Shown: positions 14,048 through 29,882, numbered from the stretch's first letter. The stretch: 32,000 nucleotides of DNA from Formosa sp. Hel1_33_131 (GCF_001735745.1 NZ_CP017260.1:2310001-2342000); one strand, 5' to 3'. The notes: a model not told the origin generated them from the sequence alone. Numbers and translations are program-made.

Positions 14048-14602
14048 TTATTCAGTAGCCTCAAAGGGCAATTCATCTGGATTTTGATAATGCGCTAGTT
14101 CTAACTCCAATAAACTCTTTTTAACAGGGAGTCCACCCGCATAGCCCACTAATTTATTATTGGATCCAATCACTCTATGACAGGGAATTATAAGCGCGAG
14201 TGCATTGGCACCATTGGCAGTGGCCACAGCTCTTACGGATTTTTTATTTCCAATTTGTTTCGCTAATTCTAAATAGGATTTTGTGGTCCCATAAGGGATT
14301 GTTTGTAAAGCGTTCCAAACGCTGAACTGAAAGGGAGTTCCTACCATTTTAATTGGCAACGTAAATTCGTCTCGCGTTCCATTTAAGTAGGCTTTAACTT
14401 GTAACCTTGCAGCTCTCAAAAGAGGTGTTTCTTTCTCAAGATATACTGCGTTTAAGCCTGTTTGTATTCGCTTGTCAATACGCGTTCGCATTTTTCGGTA
14501 TCGGAAATCTAATATACAGATCTGATTTTCAAAACATCCAATGATCAACTCTCCAATAGTTGTTTTGTAGTATTTTATAAAAATGATGTTTTTTGGAGCC
14601 AT
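14048..14602 (-). CDS. ogt: Methylated-DNA--protein-cysteine methyltransferase
   Basis: 184 aa. Contains the active-site motif IPCHRVIG and the preceding TPFQFSVWNAL...IPYGTTKSY helix-turn-helix region. Confidence 0.9.
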   Translation of the reverse strand: MAPKNIIFIKYYKTTIGELIIGCFENQICILDFRYRKMRTRIDKRIQTGLNAVYLEKETPLLRAARLQVKAYLNGTRDEFTLPIKMVGTPFQFSVWNALQTIPYGTTKSYLELAKQIGNKKSVRAVATANGANALALIIPCHRVIGSNNKLVGYAGGLPVKKSLLELELAHYQNPDELPFEATE

Positions 14603-14609
14603 AGTTTAG

Positions 14610-15302
14610 TTAGTTAATAGAAAATCGTACCATCACTTCACTTTCAATTTTAATATCCGAAAACTCGATATCAATAGGGGCTTCTAATTTCATGTCAACA
14701 GCATACGCCATCCTCATTTGTCCATTTCTTGGGTTGTAAGAGTTAGTGTAATACTTATCTGAGATAAAAATTGCTTTTCCAAGCTGCTGTTCTAGGGGCG
14801 TGATCAATGCATTGGCTTGTGCCTTCGCTTTTAGTATTGCTTTTGAGCGTAAAATTAGTTTTAAGGCTTCGGTTTTTGAGTATTCTGTTTTGGTTAAGCG
14901 CACATTAGAAATGCCTTGTGCTTCTAAATGGATTAAGACCTGACTCGCTGTGAGTCCATCATAGACGACCAATTCATACGCTTTTGATTTGAGAACACTT
15001 TTCTTTTTTAAAAAGTATTTTTTATAGTTACTGGCGAGGTCTTCAATTTTTAATTGTTTTTTTAAATCGATGTTTAAGTTCTCTAAAACGTCAGCGAGCA
15101 GTTGCTCTTGAGATTCAACAGATGTTTTGTTGCGGTCTTCTTTTTCTTGAATTAAAATAGACAAATAAATACGATCAGGCTTTACCAATGAATCAACTTT
15201 AGCGGTTGTTTCTAAATAGGGTTGATCAATAAAATTTTTAGCTTGAGAGAATCCAACTAAAGTTGTAGCGACAAAGAATGCTACTGTAAGGTAATGTTTC
15301 AT
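14610..15302 (-). CDS. SIMPL (DUF541) domain periplasmic protein
   Basis: 230 aa with a signal peptide. Size and sequence pattern fit SIMPL/YggE-like proteins. It ends 7 nt upstream of ogt, so the two are probably co-transcribed. Confidence 0.6.
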   Translation of the reverse strand: MKHYLTVAFFVATTLVGFSQAKNFIDQPYLETTAKVDSLVKPDRIYLSILIQEKEDRNKTSVESQEQLLADVLENLNIDLKKQLKIEDLASNYKKYFLKKKSVLKSKAYELVVYDGLTASQVLIHLEAQGISNVRLTKTEYSKTEALKLILRSKAILKAKAQANALITPLEQQLGKAIFISDKYYTNSYNPRNGQMRMAYAVDMKLEAPIDIEFSDIKIESEVMVRFSIN

Positions 15303-15457
15303 TTCTTTGTTTTTTATTTTATGACTTCATTTAGTTAAATAGTTATAATTAGTTATAATAATAGCATCCCTCAAACAAAGGACATACCCAAAACAACCCT
15401 AACTAAAGGGGTCTTGGTTTACAGTAATAAAGTAAACTACTCTTGGTTTTATTGGTT

Positions 15458-15520
15458 TGAAGAATCAGATTTGGGGTCTAAGTCTCGCGTAAATTTAAGA
15501 AAATAAATGGGACTGCCAAA
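15458..15520 (-). promoter_or_regulatory. Promoter-leader cassette copy 1
   Basis: On the minus strand, TTTG (15520-15517) is followed by 19 nt and then TAAATTTA (15497-15490). Seven nt later comes the conserved leader GAGACTTAGACCCCAAATCTGATTCTTCA (15486-15458). It lies about 155 nt upstream of the SIMPL start. Homologous copies are at 17199-17262, 23411-23514 and 26704-26808. Confidence 0.55.
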
Positions 15521-15602
15521 AAATTTTAACACGAACGCGCTAGAATTTAACAAATTTGGGGGTGTTTTTCTTTTTACACAGGAGCCTCTCTGTTGTAATA
15601 TA

Positions 15603-16154
15603 TCACAATAGAATCCATCCCAAGTTAAAATTCAAGTACGGTTGAACTTTACCTCCTATCGGTTTGGAATAGCTATACACAATTCCAACTTCAAAACCAA
15701 AGTTTAGTTTTTTGATGTAGGTTCTTTGAAAACCATAAACCCCTCCAGTTTGAAATAAATCATTTACAACATTTATATTATTCTCAATAATAATTGCATT
15801 TGAACTGTTATAGGATGCTATTATTCCATAAAAATTAGCGGAATTATTAAATGTATTTTTTCCTTTTTCGAGTCTTCTTTCATAATTATAGTACTGTCGG
15901 AATGAAATTTCCGCTAAAGGGAAAAGGCCAATGTGACTTTTATTTGTTTTTATATTTGTTATGCTTCCAAGTTCAGTACCAATTTGTAAACTAAGAGTTG
16001 CATATTCTGAAATTCCGAATTCATAGTCTATATTAGGTGCAGGCAACAGATTTACTTTAAGCTGGTGTTTTTTGACTCCTTCTGAATTGTTTTGAGCGTT
16101 CAGCATAGATAAAGATAAAAGTAAAGCAAGTAGGAAGCTTAGATTTTTTTTCAT
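15603..16154 (-). CDS. Hypothetical secreted protein, possibly a small outer-membrane beta-barrel
   Basis: 183 aa with a signal peptide (LLALLLSLSMLNAQ). Alternating hydrophobic/polar beta-like segments are rich in Tyr, Gly and Asn. No specific family recognised. Confidence 0.5.
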   Translation of the reverse strand: MKKNLSFLLALLLSLSMLNAQNNSEGVKKHQLKVNLLPAPNIDYEFGISEYATLSLQIGTELGSITNIKTNKSHIGLFPLAEISFRQYYNYERRLEKGKNTFNNSANFYGIIASYNSSNAIIIENNINVVNDLFQTGGVYGFQRTYIKKLNFGFEVGIVYSYSKPIGGKVQPYLNFNLGWILL

Positions 16155-16231
16155 TTTTAAATTGTGTTTCAGTCAAATACGTTAAAATATTTATGTATGC
16201 AAAATAGGGGAATTAGTAGTTTTAACAACCC

Positions 16232-16951
16232 CTATTTCCCCTCCAACGCATTCTGAATGGAATTAGAAATTTGATGTCCAATTTCAGGAAAGCCTCCACT
16301 TACGTGGTCATAAAAATTACCATTTTTGTCAATGACTATGTTTGTTGGGTATGATGAGGTGTTAAATAAAGTACAGATTTCTTTTGCATCTGAAACAACA
16401 GGATATTGTAGTGGGTATTTTTCTAAAAAAGTAACGACTTTTTCTTTTTCATCAAAGGTAATGGATGCAAAAACAACTTCGGTATTGTTTTTATATGTTT
16501 TATAGACTTCATTTAATTCTGGAATCTCTGCAATACAGGGTTTACAGCTCACAAACCAAAAATTCAAAACCACTACTTTTCCTTTGGTGGTTTCAGAAGA
16601 AATTTCATTTCCATTTAGGTCTGTCATTTTAAAATTAGGTGCGGGTTTTCCAATGATATCGGTACTATTGGGTAGCATCGATGTTAGTCCCATCTCCTTT
16701 CTTTCTTCTTCAGTTGCTTTTCGCATTTGCATGTACAACAATTTTCCGTCTTTGTCTTTTACAGGATCCATGGACCACTCAGCTGAGTCCAACAGCTCCA
16801 TTAATTTGAGTACGTCAATTTTATTTCCTGCTTCATCTTTAATGAGTGTGTTCTCATCAATTGTAATAGGGTCATCTGTGGGTTCTTGTGAATATCCATT
16901 GTGATTCAAAAATAGTAACAAGGTAAGTGCGATAATAAGTGATCGTTTCAT
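16232..16951 (-). CDS. TlpA/redoxin-family thiol:disulfide oxidoreductase with an N-terminal extension
   Basis: 239 aa with a signal peptide. The thioredoxin-fold motif is VVVLNFWFVSCKPCIAEIPEL (CxxC = CKPC), with a downstream YPTNIVIDKNG. Confidence 0.8.
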   Translation of the reverse strand: MKRSLIIALTLLLFLNHNGYSQEPTDDPITIDENTLIKDEAGNKIDVLKLMELLDSAEWSMDPVKDKDGKLLYMQMRKATEEERKEMGLTSMLPNSTDIIGKPAPNFKMTDLNGNEISSETTKGKVVVLNFWFVSCKPCIAEIPELNEVYKTYKNNTEVVFASITFDEKEKVVTFLEKYPLQYPVVSDAKEICTLFNTSSYPTNIVIDKNGNFYDHVSGGFPEIGHQISNSIQNALEGK

Positions 16952-16976
16952 ATGATTGTATTTATTGTTTTTTAGT

Positions 16977-17012
16977 GGTCACACTTCGACTGCGCTCAGT
17001 GCAAGTATGGTA
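16977..17012. repeat. Short REP-like hairpin fragment
   Basis: ACTT-CG-ACTG-CGCT-CAGT-GC-AAGT (16983-17006) folds as 4+4 bp with a 2x2 internal mismatch. The tcgactgcgctcag core resembles hairpin repeats common in Bacteroidota intergenic DNA. It lies inside the long leader of the TlpA-like gene. Confidence 0.35.
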
Positions 17013-17198
17013 CATCCATTTTATCATTTTCTTGGGTATCAAGATTTAGATATGGATGGTTCATAGCTATTTTTTTAAAATGAATTAAAATCAACGGCAG
17101 CATTAAGTCCATCCTAATAGCTGCTAATTATAGAACCCTTAAATTAAATACTTATCAAACGAAGCTATATTTACAGTTACTTTTAAATATACAGTTTG

Positions 17199-17262
17199 TG
17201 AAGAATTAGATTTGGGGTCTAAGTCTGGCATAAATGTAAGAAAATAAATACATGCAGCCAAA
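17199..17262 (-). promoter_or_regulatory. Promoter-leader cassette copy 2
   Basis: On the minus strand, TTTG (17262-17259) is followed by 20 nt and then TACATTTA (17238-17231). Then comes the leader CAGACTTAGACCCCAAATCTAATTCTTCA (17227-17199). It lies about 250 nt upstream of the TlpA-like start. Confidence 0.55.
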
Positions 17263-17337
17263 TGAATTTAAATGCTAACACATTCATCGTCATTGGTTAT
17301 GATCAGAAACCTTGGTTTTTAATCTGCTTACTAAAAT

Positions 17338-17820
17338 TTAACAACAATTACTACTTGGAGTACAGCAAGGCTCCTCATTCAAATCGGATAATCTTACGTT
17401 TTGTTTTCCTTCCGGAACCCCACATTGGTCTTGTGCCAAGCAATTGGTTTGTTTTGAGGTGAGTAAAAAGTTTTTGCCATCAAAATCCAGTCCAAATTTC
17501 CCAATGGTTTCCGACCCTTCGATCTGTGATTGGTATTCGACCTCAATTTCTAAATTGTCTATTTTTAAAATTTTTTCAGAAAGTTCTATGATGTTTAGGA
17601 GTTTTTCGGGGTGCAGCCTGTGATCGTAATCGTTTGCATTCCAAAGTTGAAAGTTGGCGACTTCCTCATTGCGTACAACGCCTCCACAATCAATAAAGTG
17701 TTTGGTGATTTTTCCCACTTCTGTGACATGAAAGTGATTAGGAACCAATGTACCATTCGCCAATTGAAATCCGATTTTATCTAATTTTTTTAAAACTAAT
17801 TTAACTTCTGATAATTTCAT
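17338..17820 (-). CDS. DUF6428-family protein with a Cys-rich C-terminal tail
   Basis: 160 aa. The GTLVPNHFHVTEVGKITKHFIDCGG...FQLWNANDYDHRLHPEKL...IEVEYQ pattern is one I recognise as DUF6428. The tail is TNCLAQDQCGVP...EPCCTPSSNCC. Confidence 0.65.
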   Translation of the reverse strand: MKLSEVKLVLKKLDKIGFQLANGTLVPNHFHVTEVGKITKHFIDCGGVVRNEEVANFQLWNANDYDHRLHPEKLLNIIELSEKILKIDNLEIEVEYQSQIEGSETIGKFGLDFDGKNFLLTSKQTNCLAQDQCGVPEGKQNVRLSDLNEEPCCTPSSNCC

Positions 17821-17861
17821 AGAAATGTTTTTTTGGGTTACACGATTACTGTTATGAACTT

Positions 17862-17892
17862 TAAAAATACCTAAAACAGATTAAAAACCAAA
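17862..17892 (-). promoter_or_regulatory. Candidate promoter for the DUF6428 gene
   Basis: On the minus strand, TTTG (17892-17889) is followed by 19 nt and then TATTTTTA (17869-17862). It lies about 40 nt upstream of the ATG at 17820. Confidence 0.35.
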
Positions 17893-17916
17893 CAAAAAAA
17901 GGAACTAAAATCCTTT
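17893..17916 (-). terminator. Candidate rho-independent terminator after katG
   Basis: On the minus strand, AAAGGA-TTTTAGT-TCCTTT is followed by TTTTTG. The stem is only 6 bp and AT-rich, so this is weak. Confidence 0.35.
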
Positions 17917-18005
17917 GATTCTGTTTTACCCGAATGGACCTTCCTAAAACGAAATATAATTTAACTTTTCAGGAAGGAGTTTTCAGGTTTATAATATTGA
18001 TAAAT

Positions 18006-20260
<2,255 letters not shown>

Positions 20261-20311
20261 GCATTATAGATATTGTCAATGCTTCAATAAGTGTTTTGTT
20301 TTTGGTTATAA

Positions 20312-20788
20312 TTATTTTTTAATGCATACGGTTTGAAATTGTTCACAGATAAGGAGCATATCTTCTTTGGGATGTTCTCCTTTTTCACTCATTTCACGGG
20401 TGTAATAGTCCCAATGGACTTTGTTCCAATACGCTAAAGATTTGTCGCCTTCTCCTTCAATTTCAGCATATTCAGGGGTGATTTTATTAAAAGGCGTTTT
20501 TTCAATTTTCAGCACTTGAATGATGGCTTTCGCTATTCCTTCCCAATCGGTTACAATATAGAGGTCTCCAATTTTGGGCAGGGGATGCTTATTCGTTTCA
20601 AACCACCACATTGAAGTAGTCGTAGCTCGTTTTACACCCTCCACAACCCATTGTAAACATTCATTGGCATCTTTTTCATTATCACAGAAATGGTAAGATT
20701 CAGGAATGGGGGTGTTCTTAAATTTAGGGTTGCTAAGAATATAATAGTTCCATAGTTCGGATACTGAAGGGTGTAGTTTTTTGGTCAT
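20312..20788 (-). CDS. ASCH domain-containing protein
   Basis: 158 aa. The layout (FCDNEKDANECLQWVVEGVKRATTT...GDLYIVTDWEG.AKAII.V......F..IT.EYAEIEGEGD.SL.YW...H..YY) matches ASCH-family proteins as I recall them. Confidence 0.7.
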   Translation of the reverse strand: MTKKLHPSVSELWNYYILSNPKFKNTPIPESYHFCDNEKDANECLQWVVEGVKRATTTSMWWFETNKHPLPKIGDLYIVTDWEGIAKAIIQVLKIEKTPFNKITPEYAEIEGEGDKSLAYWNKVHWDYYTREMSEKGEHPKEDMLLICEQFQTVCIKK

Positions 20789-20845
20789 TTTTTAATAATT
20801 CATAATAATGTTACCAATTCAATAATAGGCTTTCTTAAACTAAGA

Positions 20846-20975
20846 AGTCTGTCATTCTGAATTTATTTCAGAATCTCAAAGTATTAAAATCATTAATTTT
20901 GAGAAGGTGAAACGAGCTTGTCTACCGACAGGCAGGTTCAGCTTGACAAGAAAAAAAATAGATAACCTCCTTTTA
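20846..20975. repeat. REP/MITE-like nested-hairpin element related to 4618-4748
   Basis: It shares TCTGTCATTCTGAA (20848-20861) and TTTATTTCAGAATCT (20862-20876) with 4647-4660 and 4681-4695. The 20-nt module at 20922-20941 is the reverse complement (19/20) of 4656-4675. The right end TAGATAACCTCC resembles TAGACATCCTC at 4730-4740. Confidence 0.6.
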
Positions 20976-21177
20976 GATAAATTTGAGGATTGATGACTGT
21001 TTTATGATTAGTGAGACATTGTCACACTTTTTGTTATTCTATAATCAAACCTTGAATTTGAACAATTTGTGCAATCACTAGTTCTGAATAGGTTTAATAC
21101 ATTAAAGTGAAAGAAATAGTTAGTGTTTTAATGAGTGTCATTTTTATTGATTTTGAATAGAGTTTTAAAGGGCATTC

Positions 21178-22077
21178 TTATTCTTTAACTTTTTTAAATA
21201 TTTTTTCTAATGTTGTCTTATATTCCGTGTATATCCAATATGAATCATTCCTTAAAATTGATTCAAGTAACAAATTGTTTTTTTCTTTTTTATATTTTTT
21301 CTTTCTAGATAAACAATAAGAATGATATAGAAGTGTTTCAATATATTTATTGATATAGTATTTTTTAAAACTTTCTTTTGGGTTTCTTTTGTCTGTGGTT
21401 ATTTTAAAATCCTTGAAGTTTAAATCTGAGTATCTATAATATTTCAAGCCATTATATTTAGGATATTTATCTATGTAGCTAAGTGCTTTTTTTAAGTTAG
21501 GTGGTTTAGGTACATTAATATAACCCCAAATCATAGTACCAAAGATTCTCATGCTTTTTAAAAAGAATATTCCTTTTTCAGTATCGTTATCTAGATTGTA
21601 GTCTTTCAATGTAAAATTAACATCAGACAAATCAAATGGCTTATTTTTATTACCAACAGCTGAGAATAGCATTCCATAATAACAAGAAACTAATTCATAA
21701 TAGTTTGTTTTTTCATTTTTAAGTGAATCTATAATTACAAAATTGTCTTCTGCTTCAGCTTCGTGCAAGTTCCAGTTAATTCCACGAATAATATATAAAT
21801 TTTTTAATGTAAGAGTGTCAGCTTTTTTTAAGAATTCTGTTGTTGTTAATTTATTGTTTGATGTAACGATTTCTGAGATAAATCTCTTAGCTTTTAAAAG
21901 CTCTTTAGAAGAAATTGAATTAATCTCCTCATAAGTATTAGTCGGAGGGTCACTTCTGAAATGAAAATTTTTATAAATTTTCGCTAATTTTACTAGTCCT
22001 TTTTCATAATCTGAGTGTTGACCCAAGATATTCTGTGAAAATGAGATTATTAAGATTAAAATGATTGTTTTTTTCAT
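21178..22077 (-). CDS. Hypothetical secreted protein
   Basis: The ORF track gives 21178..22125. The internal Met at 22077 begins a typical signal peptide (MKKTIILILIISFSQNILGQ), so I prefer that start. The protein is very Lys/Asn/Tyr/Ile-rich. No family recognised. Confidence 0.55.
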   Translation of the reverse strand: MKKTIILILIISFSQNILGQHSDYEKGLVKLAKIYKNFHFRSDPPTNTYEEINSISSKELLKAKRFISEIVTSNNKLTTTEFLKKADTLTLKNLYIIRGINWNLHEAEAEDNFVIIDSLKNEKTNYYELVSCYYGMLFSAVGNKNKPFDLSDVNFTLKDYNLDNDTEKGIFFLKSMRIFGTMIWGYINVPKPPNLKKALSYIDKYPKYNGLKYYRYSDLNFKDFKITTDKRNPKESFKKYYINKYIETLLYHSYCLSRKKKYKKEKNNLLLESILRNDSYWIYTEYKTTLEKIFKKVKE

Positions 22078-22208
22078 AGATATTTTATTTAAAAATTTAA
22101 AATCAGGGTATTGTACGTCTAACAACTTCGAAACTCAAAAAGTTTTCGAATATGTTGGATTCCTTTATACCTACTATTCCGTAAGGTCTCCAAACTTTGA
22201 CCCAAGAG

Positions 22209-23354
22209 CTATATTTTCGATCTTATATATTTCTCAAGCCTCCCTGCTTTTTTTAGTTTCACGAATTTTTCAATTTTTTTATTTTCTCCAATTTTACTTT
22301 TATTAAACAAATAAAATTCAATCACGCTTTCAGTACCTGTCAAGTTTGCTTTAAATTTGTTGAATTTTTTTGTTTCCAAAGTATATTTTGACCATCCTGC
22401 CATAAAAATCATTAAGCACTCTGAACAATCCAAATACGGAGTTATTTTTTCAGATAATTCGATTGACACATTTGGACTTCCCGACATCCACTGCATTAAA
22501 AATGCATTTGTTTCTTTTCTTTTTTCGGGATTAACATCAATGGGTGTTTCAAATAACCAATTATAATCTCTAATAACTTTTTGTTCATACTTAGCGTAAT
22601 CTTCTTTGGTCACTAAAGTAATTTCAGAGCTATCGGAATTATCGTCAAATAATTCACTCTCTAAGGCAGGATTTAAGTTTACTCCATTTTCTTTAGCTAA
22701 TAATAAATATTTTTTTGCTTCACTTTTATTGCCACTATGATAATTAATTAAACCCGTTAAATAATAACCTTCACTAAGATAATGTGAATTTGTTTCTTTA
22801 TAAATTTTAACTACTTTTAATGCGTTTTCCAAGGCCATTTCAAAGCTTAAATTCATCATATATGAATTTGCTAATCCAAAGAAGCCTTCAACATTATTTG
22901 GAGAAATCCTTAATATTTCTTTGTATTGCTTTATTGAATTAGCATATTTTTTTTGAATATCAAATACGACGGCTAAATTTTGATGAGCCATAATTCCATC
23001 CGGATAAAGCTCAATTGATTTTGAATAGTATTTGATAGCTTTGTCTAATTTTCCAATTCTTCTATAAACTCTTCCTAAATTGTCATAAGATTCTATAAAT
23101 TGAGAATCTTCTTTTATTGCTTTTAAATAAAATTTTTCAGCGTTAACAAAATCGTTCTTTTCTGAAAAATCAGAAGCCTTTTCAAAATATGATTTTGCTT
23201 TAAGTGATTTTGTGCCTTCGTACATTCCTGTAGATGTTGCTGTTATATTGTTTTTCACGCCGTCAGTAACTACAATATCTTTTTTTTTCTTTTGGGAATA
23301 ACATAATATTGCTAATCCCAAAAATCCTATTGATAAGATTGTTTTTTTATTCAT
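22209..23354 (-). CDS. Secreted TPR-repeat protein with an unknown C-terminal domain
   Basis: 381 aa with a signal peptide (LGLAILCYSQ). It has about five TPR-like repeats (e.g. AEKFYLKAIKEDSQFIESYDNLGRVY, KAIKYYSKSIELYPD). The C-terminal ~130 aa match no family I recognise. Confidence 0.65.
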   Translation of the reverse strand: MNKKTILSIGFLGLAILCYSQKKKKDIVVTDGVKNNITATSTGMYEGTKSLKAKSYFEKASDFSEKNDFVNAEKFYLKAIKEDSQFIESYDNLGRVYRRIGKLDKAIKYYSKSIELYPDGIMAHQNLAVVFDIQKKYANSIKQYKEILRISPNNVEGFFGLANSYMMNLSFEMALENALKVVKIYKETNSHYLSEGYYLTGLINYHSGNKSEAKKYLLLAKENGVNLNPALESELFDDNSDSSEITLVTKEDYAKYEQKVIRDYNWLFETPIDVNPEKRKETNAFLMQWMSGSPNVSIELSEKITPYLDCSECLMIFMAGWSKYTLETKKFNKFKANLTGTESVIEFYLFNKSKIGENKKIEKFVKLKKAGRLEKYIRSKI

Positions 23355-23410
23355 TTCGTATAAATTATGAACAACTCTGTCTAATACATAGAGATGCTCT
23401 GAGTTTAAAA

Positions 23411-23514
23411 TTCACAGAAATTTAATATCTTACTTTCGGTACTATCAATTTTGAAGAGTCAGATTTGAGGTCTAAGTCTGTGATAAAAGTAATGAAAAAA
23501 ATAAGACTTCCAAA
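23411..23514 (-). promoter_or_regulatory. Promoter-leader cassette copy 3 (extended form)
   Basis: On the minus strand, TTTG (23514-23511) is followed by 19 nt and then TACTTTTA (23491-23484). Then comes the leader CAGACTTAGACCTCAAATCTGACTCTTCA (23480-23452). A further 35-nt block at 23445-23411 is identical to 26738-26704. The block ends about 57 nt upstream of the TPR-protein start. Confidence 0.55.
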
Positions 23515-23624
23515 TATTTTTTACTGCTAAGCTGCTTAAATTTATCAGTTTAGGGAGTTGTTGGTTACACCTTTTTTTTATGGAAAGCGATTTATTTATC
23601 TATAAAAATTGTTGTCGGTGTTTG

Positions 23625-24056
23625 TTATCGTTTTGTTTTTCGTTCCGCTACGAAATTGTCGAGATACATAGTTTTAGCTACTGAACCCTCTATATAGTAC
23701 AGGCTAATTTCAGCTTGTTGGTTTTTACATTCAGCACCAATAGAGTCCTCTTTGAGAGGGATTTCTAAAATATAATTCCCTTTTTTGGTAATTTTTTCTG
23801 AGTAGCTTGCTGACAATTCTTTTTTGAGTAAATAAGAATTGACTTTATAGCATTTCCCTTTTTTAAATACAACGATACTATCAATCTTTATAGTTTTATC
23901 TGTATGTACAGAATAGTTTAAAACATAGTTTGTGTATGTTTTTTCAGATTGAAGACCTGGGTAAACAGTTTGCTTAATTTTAGATGTTAATTTTAAAGAA
24001 GAATTACAGCCTGAAAAAAGTAAAAGATAGAGTGTGAGAAACAAGGTAGCCTTCAT
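23625..24056 (-). CDS. Hypothetical small lipoprotein
   Basis: 143 aa with a lipobox-like signal peptide (LLLFSGC). The mature part looks beta-rich. No family recognised. Confidence 0.55.
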   Translation of the reverse strand: MKATLFLTLYLLLFSGCNSSLKLTSKIKQTVYPGLQSEKTYTNYVLNYSVHTDKTIKIDSIVVFKKGKCYKVNSYLLKKELSASYSEKITKKGNYILEIPLKEDSIGAECKNQQAEISLYYIEGSVAKTMYLDNFVAERKTKR

Positions 24057-24122
24057 GTGTTATTTAATAACGAATAGAAACTATTGAAGTCGTTTTCACT
24101 TCAATAATTTCTATGATAAGTT

Positions 24123-26636
24123 TTAATTTAAAATTATTTTTTTAGTAATACTTTTATTGTTGTTAGTGAATTTCACAAGATAAAGCCCCTTTGAGAAGGA
24201 AGCAAGATTTACGTTTTCTTCAATGGAATTGGTTTTAAGTTCTTTAACAACTGCTCCAATTACATTATAAATTAAGATGGTTGTTTCTCCAGTTAAATTA
24301 TTGAGTTTAATATTAAAACGCTTGTTTTTTGTTGGGTTTGGGTAAATACTTACTGCGTTTTCAGCTAATTGTTCTTTTTCTATATTTAAAGACGCCGCAT
24401 CTATTGGAGCTTCCCAAACACCTCTTCCAAAAGTAGCGACTCTTAACTTTTCAGTGGCATAATGAATTTCTAAATCGTAAACAATTACATTAGGTAGTCC
24501 AGTTCCTAATTTAACCCAGTCTCCAGCTGTATTCGTTCTGTAATACACTCCTAAATCTGTGGCTAAAAAAAGCTCTCCATCTGTACTAGCTGTTTTGTAT
24601 CGTATTTGGTGCGTTGGTATGTTTGGCAAAGAACCTGTAATATTAGTCCAATTAGCTCCACTATCTGTAGATTTATAAACTTTTCCAGTCTGATACCCTG
24701 AATATGCGATGTATACTTCGCTTGGATTCGTCGGGTGCACTTCTATACTTTTTACATTTCCTACTTGGGGTTTGGTAATTGCTGTCCATGATGTTCCGCC
24801 ATTAGCTGTTCTTTTTACTAGTCCATTTGTTCCTGAAACATATATGACATCAGCGTTTGAGGGTGCGATAGAAATATACTCTATTGATCCGACTCCAGAG
24901 CTTAAGTTCGTCCAAGAATCGCCTCTATTTGTAGATTTATAAATATCCCCAAACCCTCCAAAAATAGTAGTTGGAACTGTTGGGTGAATTTCTAATTCCC
25001 ATACAAACGGAGCTCCAGAAGGCGTTCCTACATTTTGTGAGTTAACAAACCCGTCCATAGTTCTGGACATTGATCCTGCTTGACTACACGTCCAAGCAAT
25101 AGTGGAGTTTGAATAATCCCACAAGCCTTCAACGCCATCGCTTCCTGGATTTGCTCCTGTAATTGTTCCTCCATCAAAAACAGCGATATCATTATCTTGT
25201 GCCCCCGCTATTAGTTTCCCAGCATTTTGAGGCGTTCCAGAAACATTATAATATTGTGCAATTGCTAATCCAGAAGATAAATCTGTCCATGGGGTGTTTA
25301 TAGATGCATCTCCTCTAAATATTCCTCCATCGTTAACTGAAAAAGCAGTATTGGTTCCGGGAATAAATTTCATATCATGATGGTCTGAATGTACGTAAAA
25401 ATAAGGATTTCCTTGTACCCAATACCCATCTAAATATTTTTCCCAAGTGGCCCCTCCGTCAGAAGATCTCCAGCCTTCTATGCCTCCAGCTAAAATTAAA
25501 TCCTTATTTAAAGGTGAAATTGCAAGTGTCATATCATAACCTCCTTGAGGATTATATCCTGAAATTGTAGAGATGGTTGTCCACGTTGATCCTTGATCAA
25601 TGGATTTTCTTAGAACTCCATTAGTATCTAAAGTTAATATCAAATCAGTATCGTTTGCTGTCAGTGCTAAGTCTAACCTGCTAGATGAAGGGCTTGATGC
25701 TAGAGACCAATTTGCACCATTATTAGTAGAGACATAAAATTTACCCCATATAGATGTTGCATATAAAACACTGTTACTTCCAATCTTATAGGCAATATCA
25801 TTGAAAGTAGCAGAACTTTCGGTAAACACATCGGTCCAAGTGGTACCCCCATCTGTTGTTCGTTTAATATTGTTTCTTGTGGTTGCGAAAACAGTATTTA
25901 CATTGTTTGGATCAATCAGTAATTTGCTTATAATATCATTTTGACCAAGAGTAAAAGCAAGACCTGTACTCGCCCAATCATCTCCGCCATTTGTAGATTT
26001 AAAAACTCCGATAGACCTATTATGTCTACCATCCCAATCACCAGTTGCTATGTACAAAATATTAGTATTTGTTGGGTTAATCACTATGTCTGAAACCCCA
26101 AGGTTTGCGAGATCGTCTCCTTTTGGTGTCCATGTTGTTCCTCCATTTATGGTTTTCCAGATACCGCCAGCAGGACTGCCAACATAAATTGTATTCACAT
26201 CAGTACCATTAAAAGCGATGGCATTAAGTCTGCCCATTCCTGGATAATAAGGGATAGAAGATGTCGGTAGTGTTGAAGGGCCAATTAAAGTCCAATTAAC
26301 GGAATTAACATTTCTGCCATTTAAACGTAAATTATTTTGACGTTGTTTTTCGTTTTTCCACGCATTATAAGTATGAGCTGCAGAAATAAATGAACCATCT
26401 GCTAGAATTCGATCTTTCCAAAAAGCAGCCCAACGATCAAATTGTTTGACTTGTTTTTTGCTTCTTCTGTCCGTTTGATTTCTTAGCGGAAGTAATCTCG
26501 CTTCATTCTCCGCTACAATATCATAATAGTTGGCACTTTCTTGTAATGATGAATTCCGCCAATCGTTGGTTTGTGCAATAGAATTATTAAAAAATAATAG
26601 TAAGCTTCCAAATAAAAATAGTAGTTGTTTTTTCAT
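24123..26636 (-). CDS. BNR/sortilin-like (VPS10-type) beta-propeller protein with a T9SS C-terminal sorting domain
   Basis: 837 aa with a signal peptide. It has at least seven S/T-x-D/N-x-G-x-T/S-W BNR motifs (STNGGDDW, TTDGGTTW, SIDQGSTW, SSDGGATW, STNRGDSW, TANGGTSW, STDSGANW). The C-terminal ~80 aa (IYPNPT...LYLVKF...KKIILN) look like a type-A T9SS CTD. Confidence 0.8.
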   Translation of the reverse strand: MKKQLLFLFGSLLLFFNNSIAQTNDWRNSSLQESANYYDIVAENEARLLPLRNQTDRRSKKQVKQFDRWAAFWKDRILADGSFISAAHTYNAWKNEKQRQNNLRLNGRNVNSVNWTLIGPSTLPTSSIPYYPGMGRLNAIAFNGTDVNTIYVGSPAGGIWKTINGGTTWTPKGDDLANLGVSDIVINPTNTNILYIATGDWDGRHNRSIGVFKSTNGGDDWASTGLAFTLGQNDIISKLLIDPNNVNTVFATTRNNIKRTTDGGTTWTDVFTESSATFNDIAYKIGSNSVLYATSIWGKFYVSTNNGANWSLASSPSSSRLDLALTANDTDLILTLDTNGVLRKSIDQGSTWTTISTISGYNPQGGYDMTLAISPLNKDLILAGGIEGWRSSDGGATWEKYLDGYWVQGNPYFYVHSDHHDMKFIPGTNTAFSVNDGGIFRGDASINTPWTDLSSGLAIAQYYNVSGTPQNAGKLIAGAQDNDIAVFDGGTITGANPGSDGVEGLWDYSNSTIAWTCSQAGSMSRTMDGFVNSQNVGTPSGAPFVWELEIHPTVPTTIFGGFGDIYKSTNRGDSWTNLSSGVGSIEYISIAPSNADVIYVSGTNGLVKRTANGGTSWTAITKPQVGNVKSIEVHPTNPSEVYIAYSGYQTGKVYKSTDSGANWTNITGSLPNIPTHQIRYKTASTDGELFLATDLGVYYRTNTAGDWVKLGTGLPNVIVYDLEIHYATEKLRVATFGRGVWEAPIDAASLNIEKEQLAENAVSIYPNPTKNKRFNIKLNNLTGETTILIYNVIGAVVKELKTNSIEENVNLASFSKGLYLVKFTNNNKSITKKIILN

Positions 26637-26703
26637 AATATGTTGCTTTAGTATAGGTTTAAAATTTAGTATTAAATAGATATCAGAATTTTTCTAATAA
26701 TCA

Positions 26704-26808
26704 TTCACAGAAATTTAATATCTTACTTTCGGTACTATAAAGTATTGAAGAGTCCTATTTGAGGTCTAAGTCTGTTATAAAAGTAATAAAATAAATGGAA
26801 CCGCCAAA
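26704..26808 (-). promoter_or_regulatory. Promoter-leader cassette copy 4 (extended form)
   Basis: On the minus strand, TTTG (26808-26805) is followed by 19 nt and then TACTTTTA (26785-26778). Then comes the leader CAGACTTAGACCTCAAATAGGACTCTTCA (26774-26746) and the 35-nt block at 26738-26704. It is upstream of the BNR/T9SS gene, in the divergent region shared with the GH3 gene. Confidence 0.55.
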
Positions 26809-26966
26809 TAAATCTTAAGGTTAACTTGTTTATATCTATTAATTTAGAGGGTTCGTATTTAGAAAAACAAATCACAAATACTAAATTGCTCTTAAAAACA
26901 TTCAGTGTTTCTATTAAAAATAGTAACTTGGTATTGGATTTAACTCCACTATTTTTAAAACCATTT

Positions 26967-29882
26967 ATGCGCCATTTTTTTACACTCTTTTGTTTTATTT
27001 TTTCGCTCTCACTTTTCGCTCAAGAATCGGCTTCTCCTTTGGACACTTCCGATGTAGAGCTGCAAAAAACATGGGTGGACAGTACTTACAATGCACTTAG
27101 CCTGAAAGAAAAAATTGGACAATTGTATATGGTGCAAGTATTTTCTAATCAAGATTTAGCCACCAAAAAAACGATTCTAAACCAAATTACTGCCAATCAT
27201 ATTGGAGGCGTTATCTATTCCAATGGAGGCCCCGTGCGACAAGCCCAACTAAATAATGAGCTACAAGCTGCTTCCAAAATTCCTTTGTTAGTTGGGATGG
27301 ATGCGGAGTGGGGACTGAGCATGCGTTTGGATTCTACCTATGCTTTTCCATGGAATATGACTTTGGGAGCTGTGAAAAATTTAGACCTCATACGTCAAAC
27401 CGGTGTTCAAATAGGAGAGCATTGCAAACGGATTGGCGTGCATTTTAACTTTGCCCCCGTAGTGGATATCAATACCAATCCCAAAAATCCAATCATTGGA
27501 AATCGCTCTTTTGGAGAAGAAAAAGAAGAAGTCACCAAACGTTCTTTAGCGTTTATGGAAGGGATGCAAAGCGTAGGCGTGTTGGCAAATGCCAAACATT
27601 TTCCGGGGCATGGCGATACCAGTTCCGATTCGCACAAGACACTTCCCACAATTAATTTCTCAGCCAAACGCATTGATTCCCTAGAATTATATCCTTACAA
27701 ACAACTCATTTCAAAAGGACTGTCGTCTGTGATGGTCGCCCATCTTAATGTGCCCAATCTCGATTCAAGACCCGAGTATCCATCCTCTTTATCCTATCCA
27801 ATTGTCACCGATTTACTAAAAGAAAAATTAGGATTTAAAGGTTTGATTTTTACCGATGCACTGAGTATGAAAGGCGCTTCTAATTTTAGCAGTCCCGGAG
27901 AAATAGATTTGCAAGCCTTTTTGGCTGGAAATGATGTGATGCTCATGTCTAATGATGTCACTCAAGGCATAGATGCTTTGCAGAAAGCCGTGGAATCGGG
28001 CGTTATTTCAGAAGAGCGTTTAGCCCATTCTGTCAAAAAAATATTAAGTGCCAAATACAAGGTTGGACTGCATCAATTTGAGCCCATCGATACCACCAAT
28101 TTAGGTGCCGATTTGAATCGCCAAAAAGACGATCTGTTGTATGGGGAATTGATGGAAAATGCAATCACGCTGGTTCAAAATAAGAAAGCTGTTTTGCCAC
28201 TCAAAAATTTAGAATTACACAAAATTGCCTATGTCAATATGGGCGATACCGATGCAAGCCCGTTTGTCAATACACTCAACAAATACACCCAAGTGGATGT
28301 CGTAAATGCCAAAAATTTAGATGCATTGATAACGTCTTTAAGTAACTACAACACCGTGATTGTTGGCTTTCATAAATCCAATGCAAACCCTTGGAAATCG
28401 TATCAATTTAGGGATAAGGAACTCGTGTGGCTTTATGAAATAGCACGCACCAACAACGTGATTTTAACCCTGTTTGCAAAACCGTATGCTTTGAATGATT
28501 TCAAGACGTTTGAAAACTTTGAAAGCATTCTGATGGCGTATCAAAACAGTCCGATTGCGCAGCAAAAAGCCGCTCAAATTATTTTTGGAGCCTTGCCGGC
28601 CAAAGGAATTTTGCCTGTGAGTTGTGGCATCAACTTTAAAGCAGGCGCTGGTTTACCAACCACTTCCTTAAATCGATTGACTTACGGATTGCCAGAATCG
28701 GTGGGGATGGATGCAACGCGCTTACAGAAAATTGATTCCATCGCGAACTATGCTATTTCGGAACAAATGACCCCAGGTATTCAATTGTTAGTGGCACGCA
28801 AAGGAAAAGTGATTTACGAAAAATCGTTTGGGTACCACACCTATAAAAAAGCATCTGAAGTAAAGTTTAATACCCTTTATGACGTGGCGTCTCTCACTAA
28901 AATATTAGCCACACTTCCCTTGCTTATGGAGTTGGTTGATTCAGGAGTGATTGGTTTAGATTCTACCTTAGGCGACTTATTGCCGTCCTATAAAAACACC
29001 AATAAAGAAGCCATTACAATTCAGGAGATGCTTTCTCATTTTGCACAACTAAAACCATGGATTCCATTTTATGTATCTACCTTAGACTCTGTTACTCAAA
29101 AACCAAACCCTAAGTTTTATAAAGTTAAACCTTCTAATAAATTTCCAATAAAAATAAACGAACAGTTATATCTACGAAAGGATTTTAGGGATAGTATTCA
29201 AAATCGAATCATCAATTCAGAATTGCTCGAAGAACAAGAATATCGTTACAGCGACTTACCTTATTATATTTTAAAATCAATTATAGAAAATCATTATAAT
29301 TTACCACTGGATGCATTGGTACAACAGCATTTTTATAAATCATTAGGGGCTAATTATACAACCTATAAACCGTTAGAGAAGTTTAGTAAATACCAGATCA
29401 CTCCCACAGAAATAGATGATTATTTTCGATATGATACCGTACATGGATATGTGCATGATATGGGTGCTGCAATGCAAGATGGTGTTGGTGGACACGCAGG
29501 TTTATTTAGTAATGCCAATGATGTTGCAAAACTGATGCAAATGTATCTTCAAGAAGGGGTTTATGGAAGGAAACGTTATTTCTCAACAGATACATTTAAG
29601 ACGTTTAATACCTGTCATTATTGCGATCAAGAAAACCGTCGCGGCATTGGATTTGATAAACCACAATTAGAAGACGAAGGCCCTACCTGTGGTTGTTTGT
29701 CGATGACGAGTTTTGGACATTCAGGATTTACGGGAACTTATGCATGGGCAGATCCAGAAGAAGAAATAGTTTATGTATTTTTGGCCAATAGAACGTTTCC
29801 GAAATCCGATCCGAATCGGCTTTCACAAGAAAACATTAGAACGGAAATACAACGTTTGATCTACGAATCAATTATAGAATAA
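26967..29882 (+). CDS. Glycoside hydrolase family 3 (NagZ-like beta-N-acetylhexosaminidase) fused to a serine beta-lactamase/PBP-like hydrolase
   Basis: The ORF track starts at 26826. The Met at 26967 begins a signal peptide (MRHFFTLFCFIFSLSLFAQ), and the upstream extension would overlap the cassette-4 region. The GH3 motifs are GMDAEWG and KHFPGHGDTSSDSH. The C-terminal half has SxxK (ASLTK), YSD and HSGFTG motifs of the class-C beta-lactamase/esterase fold. Confidence 0.85.
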   Translation: MRHFFTLFCFIFSLSLFAQESASPLDTSDVELQKTWVDSTYNALSLKEKIGQLYMVQVFSNQDLATKKTILNQITANHIGGVIYSNGGPVRQAQLNNELQAASKIPLLVGMDAEWGLSMRLDSTYAFPWNMTLGAVKNLDLIRQTGVQIGEHCKRIGVHFNFAPVVDINTNPKNPIIGNRSFGEEKEEVTKRSLAFMEGMQSVGVLANAKHFPGHGDTSSDSHKTLPTINFSAKRIDSLELYPYKQLISKGLSSVMVAHLNVPNLDSRPEYPSSLSYPIVTDLLKEKLGFKGLIFTDALSMKGASNFSSPGEIDLQAFLAGNDVMLMSNDVTQGIDALQKAVESGVISEERLAHSVKKILSAKYKVGLHQFEPIDTTNLGADLNRQKDDLLYGELMENAITLVQNKKAVLPLKNLELHKIAYVNMGDTDASPFVNTLNKYTQVDVVNAKNLDALITSLSNYNTVIVGFHKSNANPWKSYQFRDKELVWLYEIARTNNVILTLFAKPYALNDFKTFENFESILMAYQNSPIAQQKAAQIIFGALPAKGILPVSCGINFKAGAGLPTTSLNRLTYGLPESVGMDATRLQKIDSIANYAISEQMTPGIQLLVARKGKVIYEKSFGYHTYKKASEVKFNTLYDVASLTKILATLPLLMELVDSGVIGLDSTLGDLLPSYKNTNKEAITIQEMLSHFAQLKPWIPFYVSTLDSVTQKPNPKFYKVKPSNKFPIKINEQLYLRKDFRDSIQNRIINSELLEEQEYRYSDLPYYILKSIIENHYNLPLDALVQQHFYKSLGANYTTYKPLEKFSKYQITPTEIDDYFRYDTVHGYVHDMGAAMQDGVGGHAGLFSNANDVAKLMQMYLQEGVYGRKRYFSTDTFKTFNTCHYCDQENRRGIGFDKPQLEDEGPTCGCLSMTSFGHSGFTGTYAWADPEEEIVYVFLANRTFPKSDPNRLSQENIRTEIQRLIYESIIE

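Follow-up and report, generated by a model that had tools for sequence, protein, structure and literature searches.

A candidate promoter-plus-leader module with a near-invariant 28-nucleotide 5' end in Formosa-like marine Flavobacteriaceae

A stretch of 32,000 nucleotides from Formosa sp. Hel1_33_131 (NZ_CP017260.1:2310001-2342000; hereafter the window) carries four co-oriented copies, c1 to c4, of an intergenic element in which a promoter-like sequence is followed by a highly conserved 28-mer. We interpret this element as a lineage-specific promoter-plus-5'-leader module, propagated in Formosa-like marine Flavobacteriaceae and including a 28-nt RNA handle, a reading to which we assign a probability of roughly 0.6. 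Under this model, each copy would act as a housekeeping-type Bacteroidetes promoter (-33 TTTG, -7 TAnnTTTA), and every transcript would start with the same 28 nt, its primary 5' end being predicted at the A of AGACUUAGACC. A looser leader (AACCAAU, AGUAAG.., a short hairpin) would come next, followed by 60–650 nt of gene-specific sequence. The module would have been duplicated or captured before many unrelated, mostly accessory genes, with its copies held in co-oriented arrays at hypervariable chromosomal loci, where recombination and gene conversion between the 115–165 bp repeats would bring in, remove and exchange cassettes. The 28-mer would serve as a common 5' RNA handle, made of a weak stem-loop plus the tail UUCA, and a putative trans-acting factor, either protein or RNA, would read it by sequence and thereby provide a shared stability or regulatory input. 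What was observed directly is the module's anatomy, distribution, orientation, conservation profile and cassette polymorphism, whereas the start site, the role as RNA and the factor are inferred.

Four copies of one module in the window

All four copies lie on the minus strand, where AGACTTAGACCNCAAAT is matched with no mismatches at 15469-15485, 17210-17226, 23463-23479 and 26757-26773, as the original prediction for this DNA had located them. No further match with up to three mismatches is present in the window, and none of 100 dinucleotide shuffles contained four matches (mean 0.47). Searches with nhmmer profiles made from ~70 family members yielded no fifth copy either, in line with the earlier remark that the motif is absent from the other intergenic regions of the window. 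The alignment reproduces the proposed layout: TTTG, a 19–20 nt A/T-rich spacer, TA(A/C)(A/T)TTTA, four variable nucleotides and the 28/29-mer. In the window copies the 28-mer reads AGACTTAGACCYCAAAT(CTG/CTA/AGG)A(T/C)TCTTCA, and AGACTTAGACC is identical in all four. The 3' half of c4 is damaged, with CTG changed to AGG plus the substitution T22C, a detail that had been understated; the first of these changes breaks three predicted pairs. Pairwise homology amounts to 92% over -23..+28 for c1/c2 and 81% over -80..+70 for c3/c4, the remaining pairs being 76–80% identical over about -45/-53..+29/+38. The leaders, counted from A1 to the ATG, are as unusually long as had been estimated (~120–270 nt; the measured lengths are given in Table 1).

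The boxes of the window copies (TTTG-N19/20-TAnnTTTA in 4/4) fit the Bacteroidetes housekeeping promoter, as had been suggested. The flavobacterial sigma-A -7 box, TAnnTTTG, occupies -12..-5 (PMC9723704). Given this position of the -7 box, the predicted +1 is the first A of AGAC, and the conserved block would therefore start where the predicted transcript starts. Among 71 non-redundant copies of the family, TA at -12/-11 is 99–100% conserved, and the 16 copies from the window and the genome scan, whose search patterns left the promoter out, all have TTTA at -8..-5. The box ends in A, instead of the G of the consensus, and the -33 element varies at other loci (TTTG, TTTA, GTTG). A sigma-54 or extracytoplasmic function (ECF) promoter was considered and discarded, the required -24/-12 or ECF boxes being absent by inspection.

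The conservation profile was derived only from positions left free by the search patterns. Information content at these positions is 0.2–1.0 bit at -4..+1, 1.5–2.0 bit at +7, +8, +18-20, +22 and +25-28, and less than 0.8 bit from +29 on. Strong conservation thus extends from +2 to +28 and ends abruptly, and the promoter spacer and the remaining leader drift. The looser leader common to most copies is composed of (U)UUUAACCAAU, then AGUAAGAUAUUA, then an ACUGU-loop-ACAG hairpin. In the array subfamily a conserved block, CCCT-AATTTRATAGAC..AGCARGTTAnC, is found upstream of the -33 element (23515-23559 and 26809-26853 in the window); conservation at about -90..-45 is seen in many copies, and this block may be UP-like or a site for an activator.

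A lineage-restricted, gene-directed family

A scan of one genome per species, using the 28-mer alone as the pattern and thus not including the promoter, gave 12 matches in 8 metagenome-assembled genomes (MAGs) out of 185,579 species-representative assemblies. The carriers are Formosa or unclassified Flavobacteriaceae, save one MAG labelled Rhodobacteraceae, and TAnnTTTA is located 4 nt upstream of the match in 12/12 cases, though it was absent from the pattern. A metagenome scan added 102 stretches, all of them marine. With profile searches across the loci, the count rose to 138 copies and a further 13 that are divergent, one MAG having at least 6. The ~150 copies beyond the window are spread over 114 contigs, all from marine Formosa-like Flavobacteriaceae. 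Carriage by phages or plasmids was rejected, as no match was obtained in IMG/VR, INPHARED or PLSDB. The Rfam family that had been suggested as a possible counterpart (Flavo-1, among others) did not turn up: cmscan of the window and of full-length units of group A, the commonest class of copies, found no covariance-model match on the element, either at the gathering threshold or at E<=10. Full-text literature searches for the motif strings retrieved only unrelated matches, such as mouse primers, and the flavobacterial transcriptome papers describe no such element.

The Rhodobacteraceae label belongs to locus L008 (CALSPC010000003.1), a 727-kb contig that bears the flavobacterial module and whose trpS region is ~82% identical to the Formosa loci; it is probably a mis-binned or mislabelled assembly.

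None of the 138 copies lies inside an open reading frame (ORF). In 104 cases the copy shares its strand with the next gene downstream, and in 6 it does not, against a background co-orientation of 70% for adjacent genes in the family loci; of the upstream genes, 61 are on the strand of the copy and 58 are divergent. The nearest same-strand ORF begins 66–686 nt downstream of the copies, a considerable distance in view of the median 5' untranslated region of 24 nt in Flavobacterium psychrophilum (PMC9723704). Because the copies are intergenic, directed at genes and far from the ORF, they are better described as promoters with a long leader than as a generic repeat. Orientation and placement are far from the random arrangement that the original prediction had set against its own proposal, and the mobile or propagated promoter element that it had put forward finds support in the ~150 copies, in the constant position of the 28-mer, always 4 nt past TAnnTTTA, and in the orientation bias.

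A generic dispersed repeat, either a MITE (miniature inverted-repeat transposable element), a repetitive extragenic palindrome (REP) or a Correia-like unit, would have no role of its own, would look like a promoter by chance and would be uniform through recent spread. The multi-copy, intergenic occurrence in one lineage, in only 8 of the 185,579 species-representative assemblies, is what such a repeat would produce, but it does not explain the strict orientation bias, nor the conservation of the 28-mer across different species-level MAGs; moreover, the 28-mer is near-invariant between flanks that are 60–80% identical, a profile that recent spread alone cannot give. Orientation bias and conservation profile largely refute this explanation, which we hold to be extremely improbable. 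Correia (NEMIS), ERIC and REPIN elements resemble the module in being short repeats between genes that may provide promoters and are co-transcribed into mRNA leaders. They possess terminal inverted repeats and insert both ways, whereas the module is found in one orientation.

The first downstream ORFs belong to 63 unrelated families, which include cargo proteins of the type IX secretion system (T9SS), lipoproteins, membrane proteins, TrpS, RecQ, HsdM and a type IIG restriction-modification enzyme, as well as DUF262-type, RelA/SpoT-like, PAS and CBS domain proteins. By a crude heuristic, signal-peptide-like N-termini occur in 26/55 downstream families versus 27% of other ORFs, a modest enrichment. 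In the window, the first gene behind each of the four copies does have a signal-peptide-like N-terminus, and the Pfam names of these genes agree with the annotation given earlier. However, since the 63 families include cytoplasmic proteins such as TrpS, RecQ and HsdM, the proposal of a small regulon of envelope or secreted proteins, true within the window, fails for the family, and a secreted-protein regulon was discarded as a general rule. Of the two possibilities left side by side in the original prediction, a shared cis-regulatory module or a mobile promoter, the promoter-plus-leader unit and its mobility are retained and the envelope regulon is abandoned.

Structure and conservation of the 28-mer as RNA

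The 28-mer is predicted to fold into a 5'-terminal hairpin with pairs 1-25, 2-24, 3-23 and 5-21 to 9-17, the loop CCYCAAA and the tail UUCA. Spread substitutions at free stem positions (A1G, A7G, A9G, G20A) keep pairing on the sense strand, and no U to C change was seen at paired U positions, several of which were fixed by the search patterns. In the divergent copies A3-U23 is replaced by U3-A23, and C4/U22 by U4-A22. Further along the leader, the ACUGU/ACAG hairpin of group A shows signs of covariation: its pairing is attained by 0/500 shuffles, and double changes are found in 9 cells. Taken from the aligned sequences, pairing at the RNA level, either intramolecular or to an invariant partner, is favoured over a double-stranded DNA site.

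Such a DNA site would be an operator at +1..+25, where a dimeric repressor would bind the imperfect palindrome AGAcTtAGA-N7-TCTgAtTCT and block RNA polymerase, the copies would form one regulon, and the block at -90..-45 would be an activator site. The 9-7-9 inverted repeat can be read directly in the sequence, its overlap with the start site is classic for repressors, the array subfamily has the additional conserved block CCCT-AATTTRATAGAC..AGCARGTTAnC, and the window array carries genes of the oxidative-stress type (KatG, redoxin, SIMPL). Nevertheless, the 7-bp spacer and the asymmetric TTCA tail are as invariant as the arms, the two arms differ from each other, and the substitutions that spread, either A to G or G to A, maintain G-U pairs solely on the sense strand, paired U positions showing no T to C. 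In addition, conservation starts at +1/+2 rather than straddling the promoter, the cargo genes have no common function, and the 28-mer is never found apart from its one promoter family. We therefore regard the operator as a doubtful alternative to a 28-mer that works as part of the transcript.

Stem-loops at the extreme 5' end are known to stabilise messengers, as in the leaders of Escherichia coli ompA and Bacillus subtilis ermC and aprE, and they need structure, not sequence. A hairpin that starts at the first transcribed nucleotide, as in the module, could plausibly protect against 5'-end-dependent decay in the same way. The module differs from them in the invariant sequence of its loop and tail and in its weak helix. 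Because loop and tail are as invariant as the stem, structure alone does not appear to be selected, and the sequence would be read by something.

Two possible partners of the 28-mer were discarded. Pairing with its own leader looked convincing in c1, c2 and L076 and is not general (mean z -0.11; z < -2 in 3/57 instances). As for antisense partners or seed targets in trans, reverse-complement 10-mers are as frequent in the 810 kb of loci as chance predicts.

Several observations weigh against the promoter-plus-leader module with an RNA handle. The energy of the 5' hairpin is marginal, -3.1 kcal/mol at 37 °C and -8.2 kcal/mol at 10 °C. A formal test of its covariation is not significant, with 81.1% of cells paired versus 79.8% in shuffles, 14/500 of which reach the observed value, and only 2 double changes. 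Stem, loop and tail are near-invariant alike, which is unlike a simple stabilising hairpin, and c4, which is without three of the pairs, still has an intact gene behind it. No candidate factor that binds the 28-mer was found. The transcription start at the A of AGACTTAGACC is itself predicted from promoter geometry; a look-up of contigs encoding the module returned metagenome assemblies only, among them the 368-kb contig_17016 of ERZ10646675. The apparent invariance is inflated at the pattern-fixed positions, since the search patterns fixed 18–20 of the 28, and the copy counts are not independent, because many copies stem from related strains.

Arrays and cassette turnover

On multi-copy contigs the modules are co-oriented in 27/27 cases and are 0.5–7 kb apart. 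Related genomes contain from 1 to 4 copies, with differing subsets of cassettes, between the same conserved flanks. The right-flank homology of 8 contigs ends exactly at 26745/26746, which is the last base (+28) of the c4 28-mer. In L106 and L040 this flank is joined straight to the SIMPL-ogt pair through a single copy, versus four in the window, and other cassette subsets are present in L011/L081, L101, L111 and L055.

A case of turnover is the metagenome contig L035, which is 99.5% identical to the window over 15145-20794 (5.65 kb) and then continues with a different cassette, which has its own module copy and codes for an LRR-like protein of 300 aa that ends in a T9SS tail, at the place where the window has c3, the TPR protein and the 315-aa ORF. 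Judging from the two sequences (window 20789-23559 versus L035 5650-6952), which diverge at a point 6 nt before ASCH begins, the difference is a strain-level cassette replacement. Sequence is probably exchanged between copies as well: T22C (window 23458 and 26752) is private to c3 and c4, and, since T is found at this position in L021, whose identity to the c3 region is 99.9%, gene conversion between c3 and c4 is indicated.

The ASCH, KatG-type catalase-peroxidase and DUF6428 genes (17338-20788, minus strand) move as a block, found in L011, L081, L055 and L035. In L101 and L111 KatG is missing and ASCH adjoins DUF6428.

Other cassette boundaries are not located at copies of the element, the breakpoints inside the leader vary (+28, ~+70-75, ~+110), and the ends of the unit are fuzzy, from about -90/-45 to +28/+70/+110, the loci offering no clean site, empty or filled, of a single unit. 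No linked integrase was found in the window, and a motif scan of the 810 kb of loci gave a single tyrosine-recombinase-like ORF. Since boundaries fall off the copies and only one recombinase ORF was detected, homologous recombination between the 115–165 bp repeats is the probable mechanism. A dedicated recombinase is not needed, because Campbell-type insertion necessarily gives direct repeats.

The lone tyrosine-recombinase-like ORF lies in L029 (2077-3415, plus strand; HMLRHSFATH..LLGH), ~2.7 kb upstream of the module copy on that contig.

The 28-mer could also be seen as the recombination site of an integron-like system, in which a tyrosine recombinase would insert and excise gene cassettes with the 9-7-9 repeat and its conserved 7-bp spacer as core site, an idea that would explain the co-oriented arrays. 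The layout with an invariant spacer resembles such a core site, and the 27/27 co-oriented contigs, the presence or absence of cassettes between conserved flanks and the several homology breaks exactly at +28 are in agreement with it. Yet one recombinase-like ORF in 810 kb around ~150 copies, none of it in the window, is little for a site-specific system, and its boundaries would not be expected off the copies, as at window 20794, 6 nt before the ASCH start, or at the trpS locus, where insertions lie past ~+105-118. The varying leader breakpoints also contradict it, and Campbell-type recombination of the repeats yields the same geometry with no enzyme. We consider a dedicated recombination site very unlikely. 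True integron arrays share with those of the module the co-oriented cassettes of one or two genes of unrelated functions, a repeat at each boundary and a content that varies between relatives. However, most integron cassettes lack a promoter and have attC, with its paired R''/L''-L'/R' core sites, at the 3' end. The repeat of the module stands 5' of the genes and contains the promoter, and the module has no adjacent IntI-type integrase, no attC-type structure and imprecise boundaries.

Group A units and small RNAs

Group A comprises 67 copies and is conserved over ~110–170 nt. In the window, c3 and c4 are group A heads cut at about +75 and joined to gene-specific leaders; the homology of c3 runs to ..AAAGTAAGATATTAAATTTCTGTGAAT, with gene-specific sequence beyond. 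At the locus adjacent to trpS, a group A unit is followed by variable genes, except in the 'empty' sites L010, L020, L041 and L079, where there is no ORF between group A and trpS. That the unit might be the trpS leader was rejected, since trpS is preceded, ~25 nt before the ATG, by a TAccTTTG promoter of its own. A U-run is present at about +105-112 of group A. An intrinsic terminator that would end a small RNA there was discarded, as no consistent hairpin precedes the U-run.

These features bring to mind paralogous trans-acting small RNAs (sRNAs), in which the invariant 5' end would be a seed and the link to the downstream gene would be read-through or coincidence. FopS and GibS of Bacteroides are multicopy sRNAs with canonical sigma-A-type promoters and an invariant 5' stretch that are confined to one lineage (PMC11697453). 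The logic of FopS is the same, with 12–15 copies per genome, sigma-A(Bfr) promoters, a ~21-nt invariant 5' region and a divergent remainder (PMC11697453), and it is the closest functional parallel to the module in the phylum: many sigma-A-driven paralogues, an invariant 5' end, divergent remainders and a lineage-restricted distribution. The conserved length of group A, its ORF-less units before trpS at the four 'empty' sites and the U-run are consistent with such an RNA. In contrast, 95% of the copies are co-oriented with an ORF 66–686 nt downstream, which is unexpected of independent sRNA genes and sets the module, almost always upstream of such an ORF, apart from FopS. There is neither sequence nor covariance-model similarity between the two, the cmscan at E<=10 returning no match although FopS is deposited in Rfam. 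FopS has a single-stranded seed, a Rho-independent terminator and a 65–70 nt transcript, whereas the 5' end of the module is predicted to be paired in a hairpin and has no clear terminator, no convincing hairpin being found ahead of the U-run; furthermore, complementary sites are not enriched in the 810 kb of loci. An sRNA family as the explanation of all the copies thus seems improbable. Some group A units may nonetheless be independent, undescribed non-coding RNAs with no Rfam match.

Group A sequences reaching ~+170 were observed in L010 (846-1010), L006 (3331-3480), L016 (1775-1610, minus strand) and other trpS-side loci. The extended form includes a GU-rich box that is conserved (GGUGUGCGUGUAUGCG), a U-run and a second hairpin that covaries, GCGCU-GAAUR-AGCGC (CGUU..AACG in L006). 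Another box, CAGCGGTGTGCGTG, is found in the group A leaders of L003 (7862-7880) and L010 (925-940) and is absent from the four window copies. It resembles GGCGGTAGCGTG, the enterobacterial ops element, at which RfaH is recruited in leaders.

Relation to mobile promoters and possible significance

Putative mobile promoters have been defined by >=80% identity over >=50 nt before non-paralogous genes of the same genome; they have no link to any known mobile element, and some of them include post-transcriptional elements (PMC3575422; Matus-Garcia, Nijveen and van Passel 2012). The window copies reach these values, with 92% over 51 nt for c1/c2 and 81% over 151 nt for c3/c4, and their downstream genes are unrelated. 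The module departs from that class in that its best-conserved part is the first 28 transcribed nucleotides, not the promoter, and in its large family of ~150 copies, placed in co-oriented arrays at hypervariable loci.

The reuse of promoters is already known, and so are small-RNA families with many copies. One module of promoter plus invariant 5' end before more than 60 unrelated accessory families has not been described, and the same is true of co-oriented arrays of such modules at loci that vary between strains of abundant marine flavobacteria associated with blooms. Were a specific factor to read the 28-nt handle, the flexible genome would be subject to a global layer of control, in a phylum where little is understood of post-transcriptional regulation, and genetic tools for Flavobacteriia would gain an expression element that is compact and portable. 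As the exact sequence is given, direct tests are possible in cultured Formosa strains. On a far more speculative note, the module might be the address tag of an expression system for the flexible genome: any recombined cassette would gain the promoter and the 28-nt handle, a dedicated putative factor would license, stabilise or co-regulate it, and the repeat itself would be the recombination substrate, which would make the whole an integrase-free analogue of the integron.

Features of the window array

The coordinates of the four modules and of the genes behind them are listed in Table 1. The group B leader of c2 is kept together with the redoxin gene in L005, L011, L035 and other loci.

Table 1. 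Module copies, leaders and cassette genes of the Formosa sp. Hel1_33_131 window
Feature	Coordinates	Strand	Details
Cassette array	15303..26745	-	hypervariable, co-oriented; between conserved housekeeping flanks
c1 28-mer	15458..15485	-	AGACTTAGACCCCAAATCTGATTCTTCA; predicted +1 = 15485 by -7 box geometry (PMC9723704)
c1 promoter	15490..15520	-	TTTG 15517-15520, 19-nt spacer, TAAATTTA 15490-15497; direct sequence reading
c1 leader past 28-mer	15303..15457	-	whole leader 183 nt; AACCAAT, AGUAGU/AUUACU hairpin, ACCCC..GGGU hairpin then UGUUUU
c1 gene, SIMPL/DUF541	14610-15302	-	Pfam
c1 gene, ogt methyltransferase	14048-14602	-	Pfam
c2 28-mer	17199..17226	-	AGACTTAGACCCCAAATCTAATTCTTCA
c2 promoter	17231..17262	-	TTTG 17259-17262, 20-nt spacer, TACATTTA 17231-17238
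c2 leader past 28-mer	16952..17198	-	whole leader 275 nt; 'group B' type
c2 gene, secreted AhpC/TSA-redoxin	16232-16951	-	Pfam
c2 gene, 183-aa DUF3575-like protein	15603-16154	-	Pfam
c3 28-mer	23452..23479	-	AGACTTAGACCTCAAATCTGACTCTTCA; T22C, common to c4
c3 promoter	23484..23559	-	TTTG 23511-23514, TACTTTTA 23484-23491; c4-shared upstream block to -80
c3 leader past 28-mer	23355..23451	-	whole leader 125 nt
c3 gene, TPR protein	22209-23354	-	
c3 gene, 315-aa ORF	21178-22125	-	
c3 gene, ASCH	20312-20788	-	
c3 gene, KatG-type peroxidase	18006-20201	-	
c3 gene, DUF6428	17338-17820	-	
c4 28-mer	26746..26773	-	AGACTTAGACCTCAAATAGGACTCTTCA; 3' half damaged
c4 promoter	26778..26853	-	TTTG 26805-26808, TACTTTTA 26778-26785; conserved upstream block ..AAGTTAACC..
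c4 leader past 28-mer	26637..26745	-	whole leader 137 nt
c4 gene, Sortilin/BNR-like T9SS cargo	24123-26636	-	with Por_Secre_tail
c4 gene, 143-aa ORF	23625-24056	-	

At the right end of the array, c4 abuts the conserved flank with the GH3/beta-lactamase gene. This gene (26826-29882, plus strand), divergent to c4, codes for a 1018-aa fusion of GH3 (N- and C-terminal domains) with a beta-lactamase-family domain.

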